Positions 7,858 through 57,137 of a DNA stretch of 64,000 bases are shown one piece after another. Position 1 is the stretch's first letter, and each line of letters opens with the position of its first letter. The translations under genes and the position numbers were made by a program. The notes beneath the pieces are model-generated. The model saw only the letters and a list, made by a program, of their open reading frames with translations, was not told the origin of the DNA and did not search any database. The stretch is from positions 16,931-80,930 of the forward strand of contig JAFSHW010000012.1 in the NCBI GenBank assembly GCA_017440085.1. Reading direction: 5' to 3'. This DNA is from Clostridia bacterium (lineage in GTDB: Bacteria > Bacillota > Clostridia > Oscillospirales > UBA644).

Positions 7858-9078
7858 ATGCGTAATATAAATGAAAAAACAGGGCGAATTCGTTCGAAAA
7901 CCGGAAAAATTGTGCTGTATGCAATTCTTGCTGCAATGCTCCTTTGCGGTTTAGGCGTATATTTTGCCTCAACAATACCTAATAAATACTACGTCTTTGA
8001 ATCGGATACGGAAAATCTTGAAGAAATACTGAATCAAGAAAAATTTTCCCCCGTAACTTCAACGGTGAGCGTTTCAGACGGCAATTATTCCGTAGATTTT
8101 AAGTTGTGGGGAATAATGCCAATAAAGAGCTCCTCCGTAGAGGTTGTGGCTAGCCAATCGCTTATGGCAGGCGGTGAACCTTTTGGAATAAAATTCTACA
8201 CTGAGGGCGTCATTGTGGTCAGCTTGACCGACGTTGAAACTGAAAACGGAAAAGTCAATCCTGCCTATAATAGCGGAATTCGAGTAAAAGACATAATCAC
8301 CACTATAAACGGAAAAAAAATCAAAAGCAACGAATATCTCACCGAAACGGTGAAAAATTGCGGAGGCAAAGAGTTGACTCTCGGCGTTAAGCGAGAAAAC
8401 CTTATTTTTGAAATTAAAACTACTCCCGTTAAGGACTCAAAAGGAATTTACCGCTTGGGTTGCTGGGTAAGGGACAGTACAGCAGGAATAGGGACGGTAA
8501 CATTCTACGACCCTGTAAACAAGACTTTTGCAGGGTTGGGCCACGGAATTTGCGATAGCGACACAGGAGAACTTATGCCGATTTCTTATGGAAAAGCTTT
8601 GGAAGCTGAAATTTTTTCTGTTGTTAAAGGAATTGCAGGAACTCCCGGAGAACTTCGCGGTGCGTTCAATGAATTTTCAAACGTTGGAACCATAGTTAAG
8701 AATTGCGAAGAGGGCGTTTTCGGCACTTTGAAAGACGGATACGAACCTAAAGGCCCCCTCTACCCTGTTGCCTTCAAGCAAGATATACGGGAAGGAAGCG
8801 CGGAAATACTTTGCACTACGGACAGTAATGGAGTTCAAAAATATGAGATTGAAATTCTGCATATATATTCAAACTCAGTTAAAACTACTAAAAATATGGT
8901 GATTTCCATTACCGACGAAGCTCTTTTGGAAAAAACCGGCGGCATAGTTCAAGGGATGTCAGGTTCGCCTATAATACAAAACGGTAAAATTATTGGAGCA
9001 GTAACTCACGTTATGATTAACGACCCAACAAAGGGCTACGGAATTTTTATTGAAAATATGCTTAATGCGGCAGGCTGA
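7858..9078 (+). CDS. spoIVB: SpoIVB peptidase (S55), sporulation signalling protease
   Basis: It has an N-terminal TM helix, a PDZ-like region (IRVKDIITTINGKKI) and the catalytic-region motif GMSGSPIIQNGKIIGAVTHV; 406 aa. Confidence 0.9.
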   Translation: MRNINEKTGRIRSKTGKIVLYAILAAMLLCGLGVYFASTIPNKYYVFESDTENLEEILNQEKFSPVTSTVSVSDGNYSVDFKLWGIMPIKSSSVEVVASQSLMAGGEPFGIKFYTEGVIVVSLTDVETENGKVNPAYNSGIRVKDIITTINGKKIKSNEYLTETVKNCGGKELTLGVKRENLIFEIKTTPVKDSKGIYRLGCWVRDSTAGIGTVTFYDPVNKTFAGLGHGICDSDTGELMPISYGKALEAEIFSVVKGIAGTPGELRGAFNEFSNVGTIVKNCEEGVFGTLKDGYEPKGPLYPVAFKQDIREGSAEILCTTDSNGVQKYEIEILHIYSNSVKTTKNMVISITDEALLEKTGGIVQGMSGSPIIQNGKIIGAVTHVMINDPTKGYGIFIENMLNAAG

Positions 9079-9093
9079 AAGGCTTGCCGTTTT
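9068..9093 (+). terminator. Intrinsic terminator candidate after spoIVB
   Basis: The stem pairs CGGCAGGCT with GGCTTGCCG (with G-U pairs) around a GAAA loop and is followed by TTTT. The stop codon lies inside the stem-loop. Confidence 0.5.
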
Positions 9094-9184
9094 CAGACTT
9101 ATATTATAGCACAAATCAAAGACTTATACAAGCACTTAATTCCAACATTATTTTTTTTAAAAAAATGAAAACTTTTCCAGCAAA

Positions 9185-9212
9185 TGAAACCTTTATGAAA
9201 ACTTATCGTCTA
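9185..9212 (+). promoter_or_regulatory. ECF-sigma-type promoter candidate (TGAAAC-N16-CGTCTA)
   Basis: The -35 TGAAAC is at 9185-9190, the spacer is 16 nt, and the -10 CGTCTA is at 9207-9212. The site is 105 nt upstream of the lipoprotein ATG. It has the same -10 and spacing as the site upstream of the ECF sigma gene. Confidence 0.5.
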
Positions 9213-9238: not shown

Positions 9239-9267
9239 TTGATTCAGCTCAAAAATTATGCTATAAT
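9239..9267 (+). promoter_or_regulatory. Sigma-A-type promoter candidate
   Basis: TTGATT (9239-9244), a 17-nt spacer, then TATAAT (9262-9267). Confidence 0.5.
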
Positions 9268-9316: not shown

Positions 9317-10237
9317 ATGAAAAAACGCATTTTAATGTTGTTGCTTGCAGCTGCGATGATTTCCCTCACAGGTTGCCCAAACTCTGAAATCGAGCAGGGA
9401 GAAACAGACAGAGAAAATGAAAATTACGTAAATACTACGGATGAAGAACTCTCTGATGTTCCAAGCACGGAAAGAGACGAAGAAACGGAAAGCGTTGAAC
9501 CTTCAATTCCCGGCTCTGACGGACCGTCTAAACCGGTTGAAGATGACGAGAATCAAGAAGCTGAGGACCAAGGAGAACAAACGGTACCCTCAAATCCCGA
9601 CGTCATAACTCCCGAAGATGGGCCTTACGAATGGGAAGACCCCACGGAAGATCACGTCTGCGATGAGCCGCAAGAAAACCCCGACGTCGGAAGCTACGAT
9701 GCAAAACCCGTAATATACCTCTACCCCGAAGAAACTATGGAAATTTCCGTAGAATTGGATTATAACGGAACGTTTACAACGACTTATCCTGCGTATAACG
9801 ATGGCTGGAACGTGGTTGCAAATCCCGATGGAACCATAGAATACAACGGAAGAGAATACTACTGTTTATTCTGGGAAGGTATTTCAAACGTTTATTATCA
9901 AATTGACAAGGGCTTCTGTGTAAAAGGAGAAGATACTGAAAAATTCTTGGAAGAATCGCTGAAAAAGCTTGGTCTGACAGACAAAGAAGCTAACGAATTT
10001 ATTATTTATTGGCTTCCCAAAATGGAAAACAATGCGTATAATGTAATTTCTTTCCAGGAAGAGCTTTATACGGAAAACGCAGAGTTGATAATCTCCCCTA
10101 CACCCGATACTCTTATCCGAGTATTTATGGCGTGGAAAGGCGTTGACGAGTTCGTGAAAATCGAACCTCAAACCCTTACCGCACCTGAAAGAAACGGTTT
10201 CACCGTTATCGAGTGGGGCGGCTCAGAACTTAAATAA
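9317..10237 (+). CDS. Lipoprotein with an acidic linker and a conserved C-terminal domain of unknown function
   Basis: The signal peptide ends in the lipobox ISLTGC and is followed by a D/E/P-rich linker. The C-terminal 178 aa are nearly identical to the C-terminus of the next gene. Confidence 0.8.
   Translation: MKKRILMLLLAAAMISLTGCPNSEIEQGETDRENENYVNTTDEELSDVPSTERDEETESVEPSIPGSDGPSKPVEDDENQEAEDQGEQTVPSNPDVITPEDGPYEWEDPTEDHVCDEPQENPDVGSYDAKPVIYLYPEETMEISVELDYNGTFTTTYPAYNDGWNVVANPDGTIEYNGREYYCLFWEGISNVYYQIDKGFCVKGEDTEKFLEESLKKLGLTDKEANEFIIYWLPKMENNAYNVISFQEELYTENAELIISPTPDTLIRVFMAWKGVDEFVKIEPQTLTAPERNGFTVIEWGGSELK
9701..10237 (+). repeat. Copy 1 of a 537-bp duplicated gene module (C-terminal domain of the tandem lipoproteins)
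   Basis: It aligns collinearly with 11266-11802 at a constant offset of 1565 bp. The encoded 178 aa differ at 9 positions. Confidence 0.9.
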
Positions 10238-10248
10238 GGAGAATAATT

Positions 10249-11802
10249 ATGAAAAAAAGATTATTAACTATATTACTTGCAGCTACTATGATTTCAATGA
10301 CAGGTTGCTTAAACTCTGAAATTGAAAAACCAAATGAAGGCGAAATTTCAGTTAATCCTGCAGACCCAGGCTCCGACGGACCGTCTAAACCTGTTGAGGA
10401 AGAACCTGAATCTATGACAGTTTCTACCGTAATCATAGGAGATAACGCGATTTTAAACATAAGTCCTGTTGACGGTGCTTTAGGTTATGAAGTTTACGTT
10501 AACGGAACGCTTTTAGAAAAAATTTCCGAAACGACGTATACATTAAATAATACCCAAGTAAACGTCGGTTTAAATGAAATTTCTATCAAAGCATATAACG
10601 AATCCGGTTACATTGAAAGTGTTAATACGACCGTAGGAAAACTTTCAACACCAACAGTTTCGATTGAAGATAACATCTTAACTATTACTCAAGATGTAGA
10701 TAATGCAATTGGATATAAAATATACGATGAAGCAGGAGCTTACATAACGAATATCCGAGCTGGAAGCACTTACGACTTTAACAATATGTCACTTGAAAAA
10801 GGAGAACACTACCTAAGCATTCAATCTTATGGTTCACACTCTGTGGGTTGGCTGCCTTCCGAAAGGGAAACATTTATCATCTCTAATAAATCCGAGCCAA
10901 CGTGCGAAATTCCCCACCAAACACCAAAAATTTCATTTCATAATAAATACTTAACAATTTCATTAGATCCAACCGGAACATACCCGCAAGAAGAAACTTT
11001 AAGAATGTATATTAACGAAGAAATTGTTTGTCTCGGACGCGATATTTGGAAAGTTTTCTTCCCAGAAAACATTTATTCCCAAACATTTGATTTTGCTACA
11101 TTTGACTTAAAAGTCGGCGATGTTATAACAGTTAAAACCTCCTGCGCTTTTGAAGAAGATAATGAAGAGCTTGTTGCTTCAATTACATTAACCGAGGAGC
11201 ATTTTTGTTATGATGCCCCAATTGAAGACCCAGACTTCACTGAAGACCCTGAAAATCCGGGAACTGCAAAACCCGTAATCTACCTCTACCCCGAAGAAAC
11301 TATGGAAATTTCCGTGGAATTGGATTACAACGGAATGTTTACAACGACTTATCCTTCATACAACAATGGTTGGAAAGTGGTCGCAAATCCTGATGGAACG
11401 ATAAACTACAATGGCAGAGAATACTATTGCTTATTCTGGGAAGGTATTTCAAACGTCTATTATCAAATTGACAAGGGCTTCTGCGTAAAAGGCGAAGATA
11501 CGGAAAAATTCCTGGAAGAATCCCTTAAAAAGCTTGGTTTGACAGATAAAGAGGCTAATGAATTTATCATTTATTGGCTGCCCAAAATGGAAAACAATGC
11601 GTATAATGTAATTTCTTTCCAGGAAGAGCTTTATACGGAAAACGCAGAGTTGACAATCTCCCCTGCACCCGATACTCTTATCCGAGTATTTATGGCGTGG
11701 AAAGGCGTTGACGAGTTCGTGGAAATCGAACCTCAAACCCTTACATCACCCGAAAGAAACGGATTTACCGTTATCGAATGGGGCGGCTCTGAACTGAAAT
11801 AA
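10249..11802 (+). CDS. Lipoprotein paralog with inserted Ig/FN3-like middle region and the same C-terminal domain
   Basis: The signal peptide ends in the lipobox ISMTGC, and the PGSDGPSKPVE linker motif is shared with the upstream gene. The middle region of about 270 aa is beta-rich. The C-terminal 178 aa match 169/178 residues of the upstream gene by hand alignment. Confidence 0.8.
   Translation: MKKRLLTILLAATMISMTGCLNSEIEKPNEGEISVNPADPGSDGPSKPVEEEPESMTVSTVIIGDNAILNISPVDGALGYEVYVNGTLLEKISETTYTLNNTQVNVGLNEISIKAYNESGYIESVNTTVGKLSTPTVSIEDNILTITQDVDNAIGYKIYDEAGAYITNIRAGSTYDFNNMSLEKGEHYLSIQSYGSHSVGWLPSERETFIISNKSEPTCEIPHQTPKISFHNKYLTISLDPTGTYPQEETLRMYINEEIVCLGRDIWKVFFPENIYSQTFDFATFDLKVGDVITVKTSCAFEEDNEELVASITLTEEHFCYDAPIEDPDFTEDPENPGTAKPVIYLYPEETMEISVELDYNGMFTTTYPSYNNGWKVVANPDGTINYNGREYYCLFWEGISNVYYQIDKGFCVKGEDTEKFLEESLKKLGLTDKEANEFIIYWLPKMENNAYNVISFQEELYTENAELTISPAPDTLIRVFMAWKGVDEFVEIEPQTLTSPERNGFTVIEWGGSELK
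11266..11802 (+). repeat. Copy 2 of the 537-bp duplicated gene module
   Basis: See copy 1. The sub-block 11581-11721 differs from 10016-10156 at only 2 nt by hand alignment. Confidence 0.9.
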
Positions 11803-40826: not shown

Positions 40827-42380
40827 ATGGCAAATTCATTTGGAGCATACAAACGAGTATTTTTGTTGGGCGTTGACGGTATGGGCGCTTTCAATAAAGT
40901 AACAGATACCCCCAATATGGATAGAATTTTTGCAAACGGAGCGACTACCTACACGGCTTTGGCTTCCAAACCAACGATCAGCGCTCAGTGCTGGACTTCA
41001 ATTCTTACAGGTGCAACCCCCGAAGTTCATAAACTGACAAACGGTGATATGCACCCAATTGACGAGCTTCCAACTATTTTTAAATTCATCAAAGATAAAT
41101 ATCCCGAAGCTGAAACTGCAGCGTTTACAGGTTGGCCCGCTATCGCAAAACAAATCATCACTCCCGAAAGAGGACTTTCAGCTTTCGACGTTGGTCACGA
41201 CGGCCCCCTTTGCGACAGACTTCTTGAATACCTTGACGAACACGACCCAAAAATGCTTTTCGTTCAGTTTGATAGCGTTGACGGTACGGGCCACGACGTA
41301 GGTTACGGTGCTGAAAAGTATTTGGAAGCTATCAGAAACGTTGACAATATGTTCGGCAAAATCATTGAAAAATACGAAAAATACGGCAGACTTGATGACA
41401 CTCTCGTTCTCGTAACTGCAGACCACGGTGGAACTCCAGGTCACGACGGACACGGTGGCGGACACGGTGGATGGACAGATGCCGAAAAATTGGTATTCTT
41501 GGGAATTGCAGGTAAAACAGTTAAAAACGGTCAAATCGGAGAAGTTTGCATCAGAGATATTCCCGAAATCGTTCTTTACGCTTTGGGTGTTGACGCCCCT
41601 GAATTTAACCCCAAAGGCTACGCCAGCCAAATGCCTGTCGGCGTTTTTGAAGAAGTTGGTGTAGTTGAAAGAAAGCAGATGTATCCCGCTCAAAGAATTT
41701 ACGATAATGAAGGAAGACCTCAACCCGAAAAAGATTCTTCGGAATACATCGGAAACTTTATTGATGAAAACAAGATTATTTTTTGGCAGGATTTCGAAAA
41801 TGGAATCGAGGACGCAACAGGAAAATGTAAAGTCACCCTTGAAAGAGGTACAGTTAAGACTTATAATAACGGCTTCGTAGGAAAAAGCGGCGAACTTGGA
41901 AACAGCGTTGTAAGAATTGAGGGGCTTAAAGCTTCAGAAGTTTTCTCCTTCGCGTTTTGGTATTTCCCCACAACCGATATGAGATGGCTTGATATTTTCT
42001 CCAACAAAGACGGAGACCTTAACAAATTCACAATCGCACCTTTCGATGAATTAGTCGGCATCTTCATTAAAAAGCCTGACGGTGACCACATCAAAACTAT
42101 GATGATAAACGCTTCTGAAACTGCACAGCAAAATACTTGGACTCACTACATTTTTGAAGTTGACACAGTTAAAAACGAAGTGAGAGGTTATGTAAACTTC
42201 CAGTACGAAAATACACTCAAGTTGGATTTCGATATTGCACCTTATTTCAGCCTTGAACCAATGCGTCAGGGGCTCAACCAAAGCGATAACGAAGTTTTCT
42301 ATAAGGTTTTTGACGACATTATGATCATTGACGGCCCCGCAGAACCTGAAAAATTAGAAAAATATTATACGAATAAATAA
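40827..42380 (+). CDS. Alkaline-phosphatase-superfamily phosphodiesterase (NPP-like) fused to a C-terminal beta-sandwich (LamG-like) region
   Basis: The metal/nucleophile motifs are GVDGMG, KPTISAQCWTSILTG and TADHGG(TPGHDGHGGGHG). The C-terminal 180 aa or so are beta-rich. No signal peptide is visible. Confidence 0.75.
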   Translation: MANSFGAYKRVFLLGVDGMGAFNKVTDTPNMDRIFANGATTYTALASKPTISAQCWTSILTGATPEVHKLTNGDMHPIDELPTIFKFIKDKYPEAETAAFTGWPAIAKQIITPERGLSAFDVGHDGPLCDRLLEYLDEHDPKMLFVQFDSVDGTGHDVGYGAEKYLEAIRNVDNMFGKIIEKYEKYGRLDDTLVLVTADHGGTPGHDGHGGGHGGWTDAEKLVFLGIAGKTVKNGQIGEVCIRDIPEIVLYALGVDAPEFNPKGYASQMPVGVFEEVGVVERKQMYPAQRIYDNEGRPQPEKDSSEYIGNFIDENKIIFWQDFENGIEDATGKCKVTLERGTVKTYNNGFVGKSGELGNSVVRIEGLKASEVFSFAFWYFPTTDMRWLDIFSNKDGDLNKFTIAPFDELVGIFIKKPDGDHIKTMMINASETAQQNTWTHYIFEVDTVKNEVRGYVNFQYENTLKLDFDIAPYFSLEPMRQGLNQSDNEVFYKVFDDIMIIDGPAEPEKLEKYYTNK

Positions 42381-42425: not shown

Positions 42426-43289
42426 TTATTGATTAACTATTGCAGAAATAAAATGATAGAAATCACGCTGGTAAATATTTTCTGCGCTTACTCTGAAATT
42501 CACTCCGTTAACCTGAAAATCTGCTACAATAAAATCCCTTAAAAGGGGCTCGGATTCAATATTAATCTCCGAGGTTCCATAGAAAAGCACACCAACGTTC
42601 CCATATTCAGTCCCAATATATGTGGTTATTTTTTCGGAAGATGTGGTATAAAGACAATCATAAGGTAAGCCCAATTTACTTGCAGAAACGGAAATTTTTT
42701 CACCTTGGAGCTCACATTCAAAACTCATTATGTCTCGAACCAAAGTTCCGTCATTAGTAAAATAAACAGTGTGGCTATCAGATTCCAAAACGTCACATTT
42801 CGCTTTTAAATGCACTGAATCAACGGTAATAGTGTTTAAATCAATGCCTAAATAAGCAACCGCATCTTCATCACTCCACGTTTCAGTATAATGAAGTGCC
42901 GGGTCAAGGTATTTAGGCGCAGCACTTAATGTATCTTCAATTTTATTTACAAAGCATAAAAATTTAACCGCATCGTTATTTTTCACATCATCGGGAATTC
43001 CAATATTTAAATCGAGGTCGCCGTCATTTACCGTTTCACCGTCCAATCCAGTATTTTCAACAGTTGAAGGATTTTCGGGAAAGGGCAGTAAATCACCAAT
43101 TTTCCCTTCGTGAATTAAACCGAAGCTTATGCAGGCAATTAAACAAACGCCGCATACAGATACGGAAATTTTGGCAAATTTATTTATTTTGTTTTTTCTA
43201 TCTGTATTATAATTTTCTCTTCGTTCCAACAGTTCATTGGTTATTTCGCTACAACTCTTCATGTATAAAGTCCTCCTTGTTAAGTTCAT
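42426..43289 (-). CDS. Putative anti-sigma factor (single-pass membrane protein)
   Basis: It lies immediately downstream of the ECF sigma gene and overlaps it. It has a short cytoplasmic N-terminus, a TM helix (ISVSVCGVCLIACISFGLI) and an extracytoplasmic domain of about 220 aa. An alternative ATG at 43262 overlaps the sigma stop by 14 nt. Confidence 0.6.
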   Translation of the reverse strand: MNLTRRTLYMKSCSEITNELLERRENYNTDRKNKINKFAKISVSVCGVCLIACISFGLIHEGKIGDLLPFPENPSTVENTGLDGETVNDGDLDLNIGIPDDVKNNDAVKFLCFVNKIEDTLSAAPKYLDPALHYTETWSDEDAVAYLGIDLNTITVDSVHLKAKCDVLESDSHTVYFTNDGTLVRDIMSFECELQGEKISVSASKLGLPYDCLYTTSSEKITTYIGTEYGNVGVLFYGTSEINIESEPLLRDFIVADFQVNGVNFRVSAENIYQRDFYHFISAIVNQ

Positions 43290-43812
43290 TTTTCAAAGCG
43301 TTTTTCGCTCTGTACAAAAGATTTTTTACCTGACGCTTATTCTTCCTCATAACAGTTGAAATTTCAGAATTGGAAAAGTCTTCAAAATAAGCTAACCACA
43401 AAATTTGACGGTAATCGGGGTTTAAATTTTTCAAAACTTCATATATTACCCGATTGCGTTCGCCCGTTATATAGGAATTTTCAACATCCTGCTCATCGCT
43501 GAGATATGTTTGAACATCATCCATTGATAAATCTAACCGCTTTGAATTGCGACGGAGATAGTCAATAGCAATATTCCTACCTACTGCGTAAAGCCAAGTT
43601 TTAAAAGAACTTTCCTCCTTAAATTTCGGTTTTTTAATAATCAACTTTAAAAAGGTTTCTTCCATTAAATCCTCTGCGGCATAAATATTACCGACAAAGC
43701 CGTTAAGATAAAGAATCAACCCGTCCTTATAATCTCTTACTATTTCAGTTAATCCGTTGTCGTCACCCTCTAAGAAACGGCGGTAGCTACTTGCACCGTT
43801 ATCCATTGACAT
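43249..43812 (-). CDS. ECF (group IV) RNA polymerase sigma-70 family factor
   Basis: It is 187 aa with a region 2 (FKTWLYAVGRNIAIDYLRR) and a region 4 HTH (FSNSEISTVMRKNKRQVKNLLYRAKNALK). Confidence 0.85.
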   Translation of the reverse strand: MSMDNGASSYRRFLEGDDNGLTEIVRDYKDGLILYLNGFVGNIYAAEDLMEETFLKLIIKKPKFKEESSFKTWLYAVGRNIAIDYLRRNSKRLDLSMDDVQTYLSDEQDVENSYITGERNRVIYEVLKNLNPDYRQILWLAYFEDFSNSEISTVMRKNKRQVKNLLYRAKNALKNELNKEDFIHEEL

Positions 43813-43851
43813 TCCCCCTTTCCGAAAGGATTTTTACTTCCTTTCACCTAT

Positions 43852-43879
43852 TAGACGATAAAAACCACAAAAAGTCTCA
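43852..43879 (-). promoter_or_regulatory. ECF-sigma-type (probably autoregulatory) promoter candidate (TGAGAC-N16-CGTCTA)
   Basis: On the minus strand the -35 TGAGAC is at 43879-43874, the spacer is 16 nt, and the -10 CGTCTA is at 43857-43852. The site is 40 nt upstream of the sigma gene ATG (43812). Confidence 0.55.
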
Positions 43880-43895: not shown

Positions 43896-43925
43896 AAGAA
43901 CCATCGGAAATTTTCGATGGTTCTT
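43896..43925 (-). terminator. Terminator hairpin after the GH55-like gene (copy A of a 30-nt repeat)
   Basis: The sequence is AAGAACCATCGGAAATTTTCGATGGTTCTT. On the minus strand it is followed by AACTTTTTT. It lies 10 nt after the stop codon. Confidence 0.6.
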
Positions 43926-54186: not shown

Positions 54187-54214
54187 TGGAACTTTTCCCG
54201 ATAAAACTCGTCTA
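54187..54214 (+). promoter_or_regulatory. ECF-sigma-type promoter candidate (TGGAAC-N16-CGTCTA)
   Basis: The -35 TGGAAC is at 54187-54192, the spacer is 16 nt, and the -10 CGTCTA is at 54209-54214. The site is 200 nt upstream of the Big_2-sortase-like gene. Confidence 0.45.
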
Positions 54215-54281
54215 AATGTCGAACAGAATCCATTCGAGGCTAGTTTCACGATATTGTTGGAAAATTACCGCATTTAAAGGC

Positions 54282-54310
54282 TTGATTTTTCAGCGATTTT
54301 ATGGTAAAAT
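54282..54310 (+). promoter_or_regulatory. Sigma-A-type promoter candidate
   Basis: TTGATT, a 17-nt spacer (ending TGg), then TAAAAT, about 105 nt upstream of ATG 54415. Confidence 0.45.
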
Positions 54311-54414
54311 TACGAGTGGTTTAATGATTTTGAACAGAAGACACGGTTTGTATCAAAAATATAAGACAAAACCGTGAATATTCATCTGAAATCCAAATTA
54401 CGGAGGCTATACCA

Positions 54415-55995
54415 ATGCAAAAATATTCAAAACGTGTAAGATTTATGGCTTTAATTCTTTGCCTTATAATGGCTTTAGGTTGCTTTACCGCTTGCGGAGA
54501 TAACGAGCCTGTGGAAGTAAGAGTTAAATCCATTACCCTCAACTTGAAGGAATACACGTTCACAAATTATGAAACAAGGGTTAAGCTTGAAGCATTTGCT
54601 TTACCTTCAGACGCAGTTAACGCTAACAATCTCGTTTGGGAAAGCGCTAACGTAAGCGTTGCAACAATTAATTCAGAAAATGAAGTTATACCTATGTCAA
54701 ACGGTAAAACGGTTATTACCGTTACCACCGAAGACGGTTCAGTTAAAGCTTTCTGTAATATCACGGTTGACGTTGAAGAAATCGTAGAAGTTCCTACGGT
54801 TCCCGTTGAAAGCGTAGTTCTCAGCTCTGAATCCTACACATTTGAAGAAATTGGAGCAACGGTAAGAATAGGCGAAGATATTATTCCATTCTCCGCTACC
54901 GACAAAGCTGTAACTTGGTCTTCTTCAGACGAATCAGTTGCAACCGTTGACCCTGTTACAGGTACTATCACAGCGGTTAAAAAAGGCACTGCAATTATTA
55001 CCGTAACCACAAACGACGGTGGATTTACAGACACCTGCGAAATTACTGTTAAACCTAAGCAGCAAACATCAGGTAACGAAGGTTCCGGAAATCAAGGAAG
55101 CCAGGGAAGTCAAGGCAACCAGAGTACTCAGGGCAACACGGGAACTTCCACAACGAAATTCAACACAAAAAACATTCCCGCGCCCAAGCTTGACGCGGCA
55201 GGATTCCTTGTAAGCGATAACCTTGAATATTTCAATAAATACAATAAAGACTGCGTTGCTTGGCTCTATATTCCAAACACAAAAGGTTCTGACGGTATGG
55301 GAGAAATCAACTTCCCCACAGCTCAGGGAACGGACAATGAGTTCTATTTGGGCGTAGACCTTGACAAGACCTGGAAAGACGAAGGCTCAGTAGTTCTTGA
55401 CTGCAGAAACACCTCAATCAGAGAAACAGGCGAAATTTCAGATAAGAATACCATTTTCTACGGTCACGCAAAAGGCAAAACCACCTTTGACAGACTTGAA
55501 TTTGCAACAAGAGACGCAGATTGGTTTGCAAAAGAAAGCAACAGATACGTATACCTCAACACACTTGAATACGAAACCGTTTGGAAAGTTTTCGCTTGCT
55601 ACTACACAGACTCCTCTCAGCATTATTACCTTAACACAAACTGGATGCTCGATACTGACACAATCAACGCTAAGCTTGCAGCACTCTCTTCAGCAGAAAA
55701 ATTGGAGCTTGTGCTTGACGAACAGAAAATGCACGATTTCTCCATCGATAAGGCATCTTTCGTTGAATTTGCAAACAACTGGCGTTCAAGAATCAGCGCA
55801 CCAGAAAACGACCACGAATACGAAACTACTTACAAACCCTATGCTTCCATCCTCAGAAACAGAGATTATGGCGTAACAGTTGGTCCTGACGACCAGATAC
55901 TTACACTTTCAACTTGTTCTTCTCACATTGGTGATATGAGATACGTTGTACACGCAGTGCTTGTACAATCCAGACCCCGAACAGACAGAGACTAA
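54415..55995 (+). CDS. Lipoprotein-type protein with two Big_2-like Ig domains, a G/S/Q/N linker and a C-terminal class-B-sortase-like domain
   Basis: The signal peptide carries a Cys lipobox candidate (LGCFTAC). There are two repeats of about 90 aa ending in (T)VTT(E/N)DG...C.ITV. The sortase-B-like motifs are DCVAWLYIPNT, IFYGHAKG, ILTLSTC and RYVVHAVL. Confidence 0.75.
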   Translation: MQKYSKRVRFMALILCLIMALGCFTACGDNEPVEVRVKSITLNLKEYTFTNYETRVKLEAFALPSDAVNANNLVWESANVSVATINSENEVIPMSNGKTVITVTTEDGSVKAFCNITVDVEEIVEVPTVPVESVVLSSESYTFEEIGATVRIGEDIIPFSATDKAVTWSSSDESVATVDPVTGTITAVKKGTAIITVTTNDGGFTDTCEITVKPKQQTSGNEGSGNQGSQGSQGNQSTQGNTGTSTTKFNTKNIPAPKLDAAGFLVSDNLEYFNKYNKDCVAWLYIPNTKGSDGMGEINFPTAQGTDNEFYLGVDLDKTWKDEGSVVLDCRNTSIRETGEISDKNTIFYGHAKGKTTFDRLEFATRDADWFAKESNRYVYLNTLEYETVWKVFACYYTDSSQHYYLNTNWMLDTDTINAKLAALSSAEKLELVLDEQKMHDFSIDKASFVEFANNWRSRISAPENDHEYETTYKPYASILRNRDYGVTVGPDDQILTLSTCSSHIGDMRYVVHAVLVQSRPRTDRD

Positions 55996-56015
55996 TCTAA
56001 GAACGGAGTGAAACA

Positions 56016-57137
56016 ATGGAAAATAACGAAAATAAAGACGTTCAAACAACTGAAAAAACCGCTAAAAAAGCTCCCGTAAAGAAAAAGAACGGAGCAAGCA
56101 ACGTTATCAGAATCGTAGTTCTCATACTTTGTATAGGTGTCTTCGCATTTTCCGTAATCAAAATCGGTTCAGATATTTTAGATGAATCAAGCACGCAGGA
56201 TGAAATTGACGGTTTAAAAGATTTAATAGACAGAGATGACCCTAGCGTTACTCCAGAAGATCCGGAAAATCCCGTAGTCCCCGACGACAAAACGGAAAAT
56301 CCAGACCAAACGGAAGATCCGAATACGGGAAGCGAAAACCCTGACGACAATCAGAATCCCGATGATAATCAGCAGGATTACTACGACGACCAGACGAAGG
56401 AAGAGGCTGAAAAGGATAAAACTCAGAATACTATCGTTTCAGTTACAAGACCCGGCTCTTCATTGGATAAAACGGACCTTTCCGTTATTCACCCAAACGA
56501 TATAGATTTGAACGATATTTCATATCTCAGCGGTCTTAATTTTGATAAGCTTATGGAAAGAAACGACGATACCGTGGCTTGGATCTGCATTCCAGGCAAC
56601 GACTCAATAACAGGTCTTCCAATTGATACTGCAGTAGTTCAAGCTGACAATAACGACTTCTACCTTTCCCACAGCTTTGACAAATCTTCAAACGTAAATG
56701 GTTGGATTTATGCGGACTACAGAAATAATATGTCAAGCATAACTTCAAACTATAACACTATTATTTACGGCCACGCAAGAAGCTATAAAATGTTCGGCGG
56801 CTTGAAGAATTTAAACGAAACTCCCGAATGGTATAAAAACGGCTACAACCACTTCATTAAAATCACAACTCCTAAAGACGAAACCATTTGGCAGATTTTC
56901 TCTTGGCACGAAACAAATGTTTACTACAATTACATTCAGACAAGATTTGAAAACCCTCAGGAATTTATTGATTTTGCAACAGAACTTCAGGATAAGAATC
57001 AGTTGAAAGGATACTTCTCAACTTTTGAATTCACAGAAAAAAGCAGAATCCTCACACTTTCAACATGCAAAGGCTCAAACCCTGCAAACAGAGTTGCAGT
57101 TCACGCTGTTTTGGTGGCAAGAAATCCTTTGGATTGA
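56016..57137 (+). CDS. Class B sortase-like protein with an N-terminal TM anchor and an acidic/Pro-rich linker
   Basis: It has a TM helix (IRIVVLILCIGVFAFSVI) and a PEDPENP-type low-complexity linker. The sortase motifs are DTVAWICIPGN, IIYGHARS, ILTLSTC and RVAVHAVL. It starts 20 nt after the upstream gene. Confidence 0.8.
   Translation: MENNENKDVQTTEKTAKKAPVKKKNGASNVIRIVVLILCIGVFAFSVIKIGSDILDESSTQDEIDGLKDLIDRDDPSVTPEDPENPVVPDDKTENPDQTEDPNTGSENPDDNQNPDDNQQDYYDDQTKEEAEKDKTQNTIVSVTRPGSSLDKTDLSVIHPNDIDLNDISYLSGLNFDKLMERNDDTVAWICIPGNDSITGLPIDTAVVQADNNDFYLSHSFDKSSNVNGWIYADYRNNMSSITSNYNTIIYGHARSYKMFGGLKNLNETPEWYKNGYNHFIKITTPKDETIWQIFSWHETNVYYNYIQTRFENPQEFIDFATELQDKNQLKGYFSTFEFTEKSRILTLSTCKGSNPANRVAVHAVLVARNPLD

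Follow-up and report, generated by a model that had tools for sequence, protein, structure and literature searches.

Does the sigma factor of extracytoplasmic function (ECF) type encoded in this 64,000-nucleotide (nt) stretch of a Clostridia bacterium genome (contig JAFSHW010000012.1; the whole stretch is called the window, and all positions are counted in it) control only its own operon, or also two sets of cell-envelope genes nearby? The question is raised by three copies of a promoter-like motif. Site 1 lies upstream of the genes for the sigma factor and a putative membrane anti-sigma factor, site 2 upstream of two tandem lipoprotein genes, and site 3 upstream of a gene pair with Big_2 and sortase-B-like domains. 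A sequence-only reading had proposed that the three loci form one regulon of the window sigma. Our analysis did not bear this out and pointed to two promoter classes, with site 1 read by the window sigma itself through a -35 element of the type TGAG, and sites 2 and 3 belonging to a canonical class that is probably read by another ECF sigma factor. We regard this as the best explanation and give it a probability of roughly 55%.

The three copies, TGAGAC-N16-CGTCTA at site 1, TGAAAC-N16-CGTCTA at site 2 and TGGAAC-N16-CGTCTA at site 3, were confirmed at the exact coordinates proposed (Table 1). All three are intergenic and oriented toward the next gene, as had been stated, and in each of them a T-tract follows the -35 box directly (TGrrACyTTT). 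Searching both strands for TGRRAC-N16-CGTCTA returned sites 1-3 and nothing else, as compared to 0.01 matches expected from dinucleotide-preserving shuffles, and none of 100 shuffles reached three matches. Because this pattern was defined after the sites had been seen, it was relaxed to TGNNAC-N15-18-CGTC, which gave four matches in the window, three of them sites 1-3. The hexamer CGTCTA alone was found at chance frequency (20 observed, 17 expected). The sequence-only reading had counted about ten further copies of it, which was too few, as there are 17; its observation that none of them has a -35-like hexamer at N16 held, with TGNNAC absent at that distance before all 17.

In site 1 the -35 element TGAGAC (43879-43874) and the -10 element CGTCTA(A) (43857-43852) are separated by a 16-nt spacer, and the -10 element ends 45 nt before the sigma ATG at 43806, or 39 nt before an alternative ATG at 43812. 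The site is preceded by the intrinsic terminator of the upstream gene, which insulates the sigma operon, and no sigma-70-type promoter was found near it. For comparison of the upstream regions of orthologous sigma genes, a scan of one genome per species gave 80 loci (L001-L080; sigmas 47-67% identical), hosted by Oscillospiraceae, Acutalibacteraceae and other Clostridia metagenome-assembled genomes (MAGs). The motif TGAG[AG]N-N15/16-CGT[CTG]TAA(T)A(A)GT was found 21-68 nt upstream of the sigma start codon in 73 of the 80 loci, and the same TGAG-type motif in all six further loci (L169-L174) with sigmas 70-71% identical. Every sigma-family promoter reads TGAG at -36 to -33, with A at -34 and G at -33 fixed in the 73 + 6 promoters. 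The expectation of an AAC-containing -35 element for this ECF sigma was thereby contradicted. A matrix built from the orthologous sigma promoters scored site 1 at 38.5 bits and the next different site in the window at 10.4 bits, with shuffled sequences peaking at 8-15 bits.

The promoters were also found to vary together with the sigma factors behind them. Using E. coli RpoE numbering, a K or R at the R171-equivalent position pairs with C as the sixth -35 base in 18 of 19 TGAGAC promoters, an E pairs with G in 18/18 TGAGAG promoters, and N, T or A pair with T (TGAGAT). In the same way, the beginning of the -10 element follows the residue equivalent to RpoE N84, which is the D in DXXR: D is found with CGT, T with AGAC (4/5) and N with TGT (3/3). 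The window sigma has K171 and N172, and its DXXR motif reads AIDYLR. In two loci (L021, L027) tandem paralogous sigma/anti-sigma pairs each lie behind their own variant promoter. The TGAGAC/K171 type makes up only about one quarter of the family, and its usual -10 element is CGTTTAA rather than CGTCTAA, both in 14/14 orthologues of the TGAGAC class (61-67% identity) and in the six loci with 70-71% identity. That these same residue/base pairs determine ECF specificity has been demonstrated by experiment (Todor et al. 2020, PMC7776599), and the contact of D with -12G was shown for a clostridial ECF sigma, Tt-RpoE1 (Liu et al., PMC3397946). Such covariation of sigma residues with promoter bases strongly indicates that the promoter preceding a sigma gene is read by the sigma encoded there. 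Judged from these comparisons, site 1 is very probably the autoregulatory promoter of the sigma operon, as the sequence-only reading had claimed. By the same comparisons this is a large sigma family in the Oscillospirales, whose predicted -35 element is TGAG[AG]N in place of the usual GGAAC.

One other match to the core part of the sigma-promoter matrix was noted. GTCAGGCTTTTT-N-CGACTAA at 42052-42079(-) scored 20.9 bits and lacks TGAG. It is located about 350 nt past the stop codon of the anti-sigma gene, in antisense orientation within the 3' part of a phosphodiesterase/sulfatase-like gene (40827-42380). With about 0.07 such matches expected per window, it may be due to chance or may be an antisense promoter.

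Sites 2 and 3 were likewise examined upstream of orthologous genes. Orthologues of the Big_2/sortase pair in four loci (43-71% protein identity, three of them syntenic) have [TC]GGAAC-N16-CGTCTAA upstream, with GGAAC and CGTCTAA unchanged in five orthologous intergenic regions and the spacer sequence diverging. The syntenic lipoprotein loci (L165-L168) were recognized by a SpoIVB-type peptidase gene upstream and YbeY/PhoH/YqfD downstream; in L165, L167 and L168 the upstream region has ATG[GA]AAC-N16/17-CGTC[TA]A, and in L166 the -10 element is decayed to AGTCCA with the sigma-A promoter retained. Upstream of many distant lipoprotein homologues from gut species of high GC content, GGAAC-N16-CGTCTA was found at a distance of 30-60 nt from the start codon. 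A second matrix, trained only on 11 target promoters from outside the window, placed site 3 (28.6 bits), site 2 (23.3 bits) and site 1 (19.8 bits) as the top three matches in the window, and the best scores in 200 random 64-kb sequences had a mean of 13.7, a standard deviation of 2.4 and a maximum of 22.1. Sites 2 and 3 score above the best of all 200 random sequences, and chance is excluded for them. Their conservation upstream of orthologous genes in other species agrees with the earlier proposal that they are promoters, and both are probably functional, evolutionarily conserved ECF-type promoters of the class TG[GA]AAC-N16-CGTC[TA]A. The next match of this matrix after sites 1-3, the weakly ECF-like TGAAACTTTT-N-CGTGAA at 30615-30642(-) with 16.2 bits, lies inside ruvA and is probably due to chance.

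In an alternative view, sites 2 and 3 would be chance matches or relics lacking promoter activity, with the genes expressed only from downstream sigma-A-like promoters. In its favor, a strong sigma-A-like extended -10 promoter lies between site and gene in both cases, the -10 element of L166 has decayed beside a preserved sigma-A promoter, and the search pattern was formulated with the sites in sight. However, three matches were found where 0.01 were expected, neither hexamer varies among the orthologous intergenic regions, in which the spacers diverge, and the scores of 23-29 bits exceed those of all random sequences, so that we consider this view improbable.

The -35 elements bear on which sigma factor reads sites 2 and 3. 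Sites 1-3 share the -10 element, the spacing, the T-tract and C at -31, and sites 2 and 3 differ from site 1 only at -33 (site 2) or at -34 and -33 (site 3). In all of the approximately 15-20 target promoters the base at -33 is A, and in most of them that at -34 is G (GGAAC). With the sigma-promoter matrix, sites 2 and 3 scored -1.2 and 0.5 bits, as compared to 38.5 bits for site 1; with its core alone, site 3 reached 10.4 bits and site 2 less than 9, and about 45 comparable matches not belonging to sigma genes were found in 1.2 Mb. The target motif is constant across species of about 40% to 60% G+C while the -35 and -10 elements of the sigma family diversify, a comparison in which the target loci (L161-L168) come from other MAGs and samples than the sigma loci (L001-L080, L169-L174). 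At the position equivalent to S172, which reads -34, the sigma family has N, and -34 is invariably A in the family's promoters. The surroundings of the target genes, searched over 6-10 kb, were free of sigmas of this family in 79 of the 80 lipoprotein loci and in 8/8 of L161-L168; phmmer found the sole nearby sigma in L137, and linkage of targets and sigma was seen only in L051, L034 and L137. ECF sigmas have been described as 'exquisitely sensitive' to single-base promoter changes (PMC7776599). As a positive control for the specificity code, a sigma on a viral contig (L199) with the RpoE-like residues R171/S172 lies behind GGAAC-N16-CGTCTAA. Judging by these promoter and sigma sequences, sites 2 and 3 are rather likely to be read by another ECF sigma with canonical -35 recognition that would be encoded outside the window.

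Several observations weigh against another sigma for sites 2 and 3, and some of them favor the model of the sequence-only reading, in which the window sigma reads all three promoters, with the lipoprotein operon and the Big_2/sortase pair as a local envelope regulon and the -35 difference tolerated. Sites 1-3 are the sole sites in the window to combine CGTCTA, N16, the T-tract and -31C, and the window sigma is the only sampled member of the TGAGAC class with the -10 element CGTCTAA, as at sites 2 and 3. Site 1 is also the best match of the target matrix apart from the targets themselves, well ahead of the next (19.8 and 16.2 bits). No second ECF sigma was found within the 64-kb window, nor any other sigma by phmmer and by Pfam on the remaining mid-size open reading frames (ORFs), and two canonical ECF sites within at most 34 kb of the sigma gene are more than a small dispersed regulon predicts. 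No TGAG-type promoter was found before any non-sigma gene in the 1.2 Mb around the orthologous sigmas. One orthologous sigma/anti-sigma operon (L051) contains a gene with the lipoprotein C-terminal domain, and in L034 a GGAAC-type promoter, AGGAAC-N16-CGTCTAT (11587-11614), starts 2 nt past the anti-sigma stop codon and precedes three lipoprotein genes. Overlapping promoter recognition is established among the ECF sigmas of Bacillus subtilis. The structure of sigma-E with DNA, cited in PMC3397946, shows the central AA of the -35 element to be recognized via DNA shape rather than via contacts to the bases, which leaves room for tolerance at -33.

Against a single regulon stand the fixed A-34 and G-33 of the 73 + 6 sigma promoters as opposed to the fixed A-33 of the target promoters, the background scores of sites 2 and 3 with the sigma-promoter matrix, and the N at the S172-equivalent position, which goes with A at -34 in the family's own promoters whereas the base at -34 is G in site 3 and in most of the target orthologues. 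The own sigma promoter of L034 is TGAGAT-N16-TGTTTAA and differs from the adjacent GGAAC...CGTCTA at four specificity positions; adjacency of the promoters there therefore does not imply recognition. Nor do the target promoters appear to co-vary with the sigma class across the separate genomes compared. Taken with the constant target motif, these differences led us to consider control of all three loci by the window sigma less likely than two promoter classes, although some cross-recognition of sites 2 and 3 by it is possible. A further alternative, that TGAG at site 1 is the overlapping operator of another regulator and that the sigma itself may prefer a GGAAC-like element, would draw on the inverted repeats between -35 element and spacer in a few orthologous promoters (e.g. 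TGAGA...TCTCA in L004, L017 and L018). Inverted repeats of at least 5 bp were, however, not enriched (5 of 70 promoters, 3.6 +/- 1.8 in shuffles), and the base beside TGAG co-varies with a residue of sigma region 4, which points to recognition by the sigma, making this alternative very improbable.

Table 1. Features discussed in the text, with positions in the window.
Feature	Position	Strand	Basis
Site 1, predicted autoregulatory ECF promoter	43852..43879	-	Sequence, orthologue conservation, matrix score, sigma covariation
Site 2, predicted ECF-type promoter upstream of tandem lipoprotein genes	9185..9212	+	Sequence, orthologue conservation
Site 3, predicted ECF-type promoter TGGAAC-N16-CGTCTA(A) upstream of Big_2/sortase pair	54187..54214	+	Sequence, orthologue conservation
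ECF (group IV) sigma factor, 185 amino acids (aa)	43249..43806	-	Pfam regions 2 and 4
Putative membrane anti-sigma factor	42426..43262	-	Position, hydrophobic segment, conserved N-terminus
Stem-loop at 5' end of sigma leader	43824..43845	-	GAAAGGA ... TCCTTTC; orthologue leaders
Intrinsic terminator of upstream pectate-lyase-like gene	43896..43925	-	11-13 bp stem, then T-run
Sigma-A-like promoter TTGATT-17-TGcTATAAT, proximal to lipoprotein operon	9239..9267	+	10/12 matches, extended -10
Two tandem lipoprotein genes, 306 and 517 aa	9317..11802	+	Lipobox signal peptides
Sigma-A-like promoter TTGATT-17-TGgTAAAAT, proximal to Big_2/sortase gene	54282..54310	+	Extended -10; conserved in L161-L163
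526-aa two-Big_2 + sortase-B-like protein, then 373-aa sortase-B-like membrane protein	54415..57137	+	Pfam

The product of the sigma gene was confirmed as an ECF sigma, as Pfam found Sigma70_r2 (5e-16, residues 23-89) and Sigma70_r4_2 (2e-12, residues 120-171) and no region 3. Among the NCBIfam models it matched at superfamily level only (TIGR02937, 102.7 bits with a cut-off of 42.9). It has 4792 homologues, the nearest outside its own species being 71% identical. The second gene likely starts at the ATG at 43262, 8 nt past AAGGAGG and with a 14-nt overlap with the sigma stop, within a longest ORF that begins at 43289. It encodes a single-pass membrane protein with one hydrophobic segment after a short N-terminus and had no Pfam or NCBIfam match and no anti-sigma domain. 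Its N-terminal 60-80 aa or so, hydrophobic segment included, are conserved in 26 orthologous loci, where they follow the sigma gene directly, and the C-terminal part varies. The sequence-only reading was supported in that the overlapping gene encodes a membrane protein, whose role as anti-sigma factor is presumed from its position.

Based on these features, the membrane protein would hold the sigma inactive, and the released sigma would direct RNA polymerase to TGAGAC-N16-CGTCTAA and raise its own synthesis by positive feedback. The sigma transcript would start a few bases past the -10 element and begin with a conserved stem-loop before the ribosome-binding site. The family appears to have diversified its promoter specificity by changes at the R171-equivalent residue, by which -31 is read, and at the N84-equivalent D of DXXR, by which the beginning of the -10 element is read. 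At the envelope genes, transcription from sites 2 and 3 would be ECF-dependent and stress-inducible, and would start upstream of the constitutive sigma-A promoters and in addition to them.

The stem-loop of the sigma leader directly precedes the Shine-Dalgarno sequence GGAAAGGGGG (43823-43814). Compensatory variants were found in L033, L013, L022 and L052, and the helix is kept with different sequences (ATGAGAA/TTCTCAT in L033, AAGGGCA/TGCCCTT in L013, AAAGAA/TTCTTT in L052). Changes on both sides were seen in five of the seven stem pairs. RNAalifold found no consensus structure in the orthologous sigma leaders, and only the pair count for the named structure gave modest support, with 78% of cells paired as compared to 73% in shuffles (reached in 0/500). 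The stem-loop may serve to stabilize the mRNA at its 5' end or to leave the ribosome-binding site accessible. Its 3' arm was also noted to resemble the anti-Shine-Dalgarno sequence.

The tandem lipoproteins share a very widespread C-terminal domain of about 180 aa (9689-10234 and 11260-11799; KPV[IL]YLYPEE...GFTVVEWGG). No Pfam match was found for either protein, and none of the 5434 homologues of the domain, 60-80% identical across genera, has a Pfam domain. An AlphaFold2 model of the domain had a predicted local distance difference test score (pLDDT) of 93.3, and Foldseek found no solved relative. Genes with this domain are often tandemly duplicated (L081-L160, L165-L168). The operon in L051 (10001-13173) has two genes besides those for the sigma and the anti-sigma, one for a membrane protein of 369 aa and one for a protein of 315 aa. 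Over its C-terminal 177 residues, the 369-aa product shows 60% identity to the lipoprotein domain of the window, and this is the only physical link found between the sigma family and the domain.

The second envelope locus has an unusual architecture, with a lipoprotein-like two-Big_2 protein fused to a sortase-B-like domain and followed by a second sortase-B-like protein. Pfam gave Big_2 (2.2e-22) and Sortase (2.3e-08 and 2.5e-07) for the pair, and the NCBIfam class B sortase matches fell below the family cut-off. The gene pair is conserved in L161-L164. Between site 3 and the sigma-A-like promoter, the block GTTTCACGATATTGTTGGAAAATTCCC (54243-54269) is conserved in L161-L163, as are a hairpin (CACGG...CCGTG) and ATTCATCTGAAA in the leader of about 100 nt at 54311-54414. 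The region could comprise a regulator binding site and a leader RNA. No Rfam family reached the gathering threshold anywhere in the window, so neither the long Big_2 leader nor that of the sigma gene belongs to a known RNA family.

The overall system is of standard ECF architecture and not surprising to a specialist. The promoters of B. subtilis sigma-W, sigma-M, sigma-X and sigma-V are TGAAAC, TGCAAC or TGTAAC followed after N16-17 by CGTA, CGTC or CGAC, and these sigmas are encoded in autoregulated sigma/anti-sigma operons. The window system resembles them in the two-gene operon of a sigma and a putative membrane anti-sigma behind its own promoter, in the 16-nt spacer, the CGT-containing -10 element and the T-tract after the -35 element, and in envelope-protein targets that often have an extra sigma-A promoter. 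Sites 2 and 3 fit the B. subtilis consensus directly, whereas the -35 element of the window sigma's own promoter is TGAGAC, with G at -33, and not xxAAC. The window sigma also falls below the NCBIfam cut-offs for SigW, SigM, SigX, SigV and SigY (72-104 bits vs 148-260). Sites 2 and 3 are also similar to the promoter of E. coli sigma-E, GGAACTT-N16-(G)TCTAA, but the window sigma differs from sigma-E in K171/N172, in the GAGAC -35 element, in being a Firmicute protein and in its unrelated putative anti-sigma. The specificity code of sigma-E (PMC7776599), R171 with -31 and N84 with -12/-13, shows the same covariation in the window family.

Tt-RpoE1 of Thermoanaerobacter tengcongensis (PMC3397946) is likewise an autoregulated clostridial ECF sigma. 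The promoter defined for it by experiment is tGTTAC-N16-CGTC with a subsequent TATAAAGGTG, which is close to CGTCTAATAGGTG in the window, and the D of its DXXR motif reads -12G (PMC3397946). The window sigma shares this motif, and the changes from D to T or N in its family track the changes in the -10 element. The -35 elements differ, with GTTAC in Tt-RpoE1 and GAGAC at site 1, and the Tt-RpoE1 anti-sigma is TolB-like, unlike that of the window. Similarity was also seen to the lysozyme-responsive SigV-RsiV systems of Enterococcus faecalis and B. subtilis, whose anti-sigma combines a short N-terminus in the cytoplasm with one transmembrane segment; however, the window sigma scored 72 bits with a SigV NCBIfam cut-off of 190, and no RsiV-type domain was found in the putative anti-sigma. 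A primer upstream of E. faecalis sigV starts with CGTCTATATAAGT (PMC2836378), a 13-mer of the -10 region of site 2, which we note as a lead only. A literature search on SigV and on the Clostridioides difficile ECF consensus gave no usable -35/-10 sequences. The window system is distinguished from the closest characterized cases by its TGAG -35 element and by not being assigned to a named family. For the ECF groups of the Staron and Casas-Pastor classification (e.g. ECF30), the article text (PMC7826278) offers no motif by which the sigma could be placed in one of them. We tentatively suggest, at somewhat less than even odds, that it represents an undescribed ECF family of gut and rumen Oscillospirales with G at -33 in the -35 element in place of the nearly universal A of the AAC core, diversifying orthogonal sigma/promoter pairs including tandem paralogues, and a conserved leader stem-loop.

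These results indicate that a common -10 element and spacing are insufficient to assign promoters to the nearest ECF sigma, and that the -35 element and the residues of sigma region 4 separate the classes. The covariation across the family independently confirms the published ECF specificity code in uncultured gut Firmicutes, and the family offers a set of natural orthogonal sigma/promoter pairs. Recognition of both TGAGAC and G[GA]AAC by the window sigma, if real, would make its -35 specificity dual. By their conserved ECF promoters, the two envelope gene sets are marked as probably stress-inducible, which is a lead to their function.

Additionally, viral contigs were scanned for GGAACNTTT-N12-CGTCTAA, and the 69 stretches found are at about chance level by a rough estimate. 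Apart from L199 and a few contigs in which the motif occurs several times, they do not look meaningful. In L199 a 179-aa RpoE-like ECF sigma (GTVRSRLSRAK; 8554-9183(-)) lies 65 nt behind GGAAC-N16-CGTCTAA, and in L194, L202/L207, L209 and L196/L197 two or three copies of GGAAC-N16-CGTCTAA stand directly before ORFs, an arrangement which suggests that these are phage promoters read by an ECF-type sigma.

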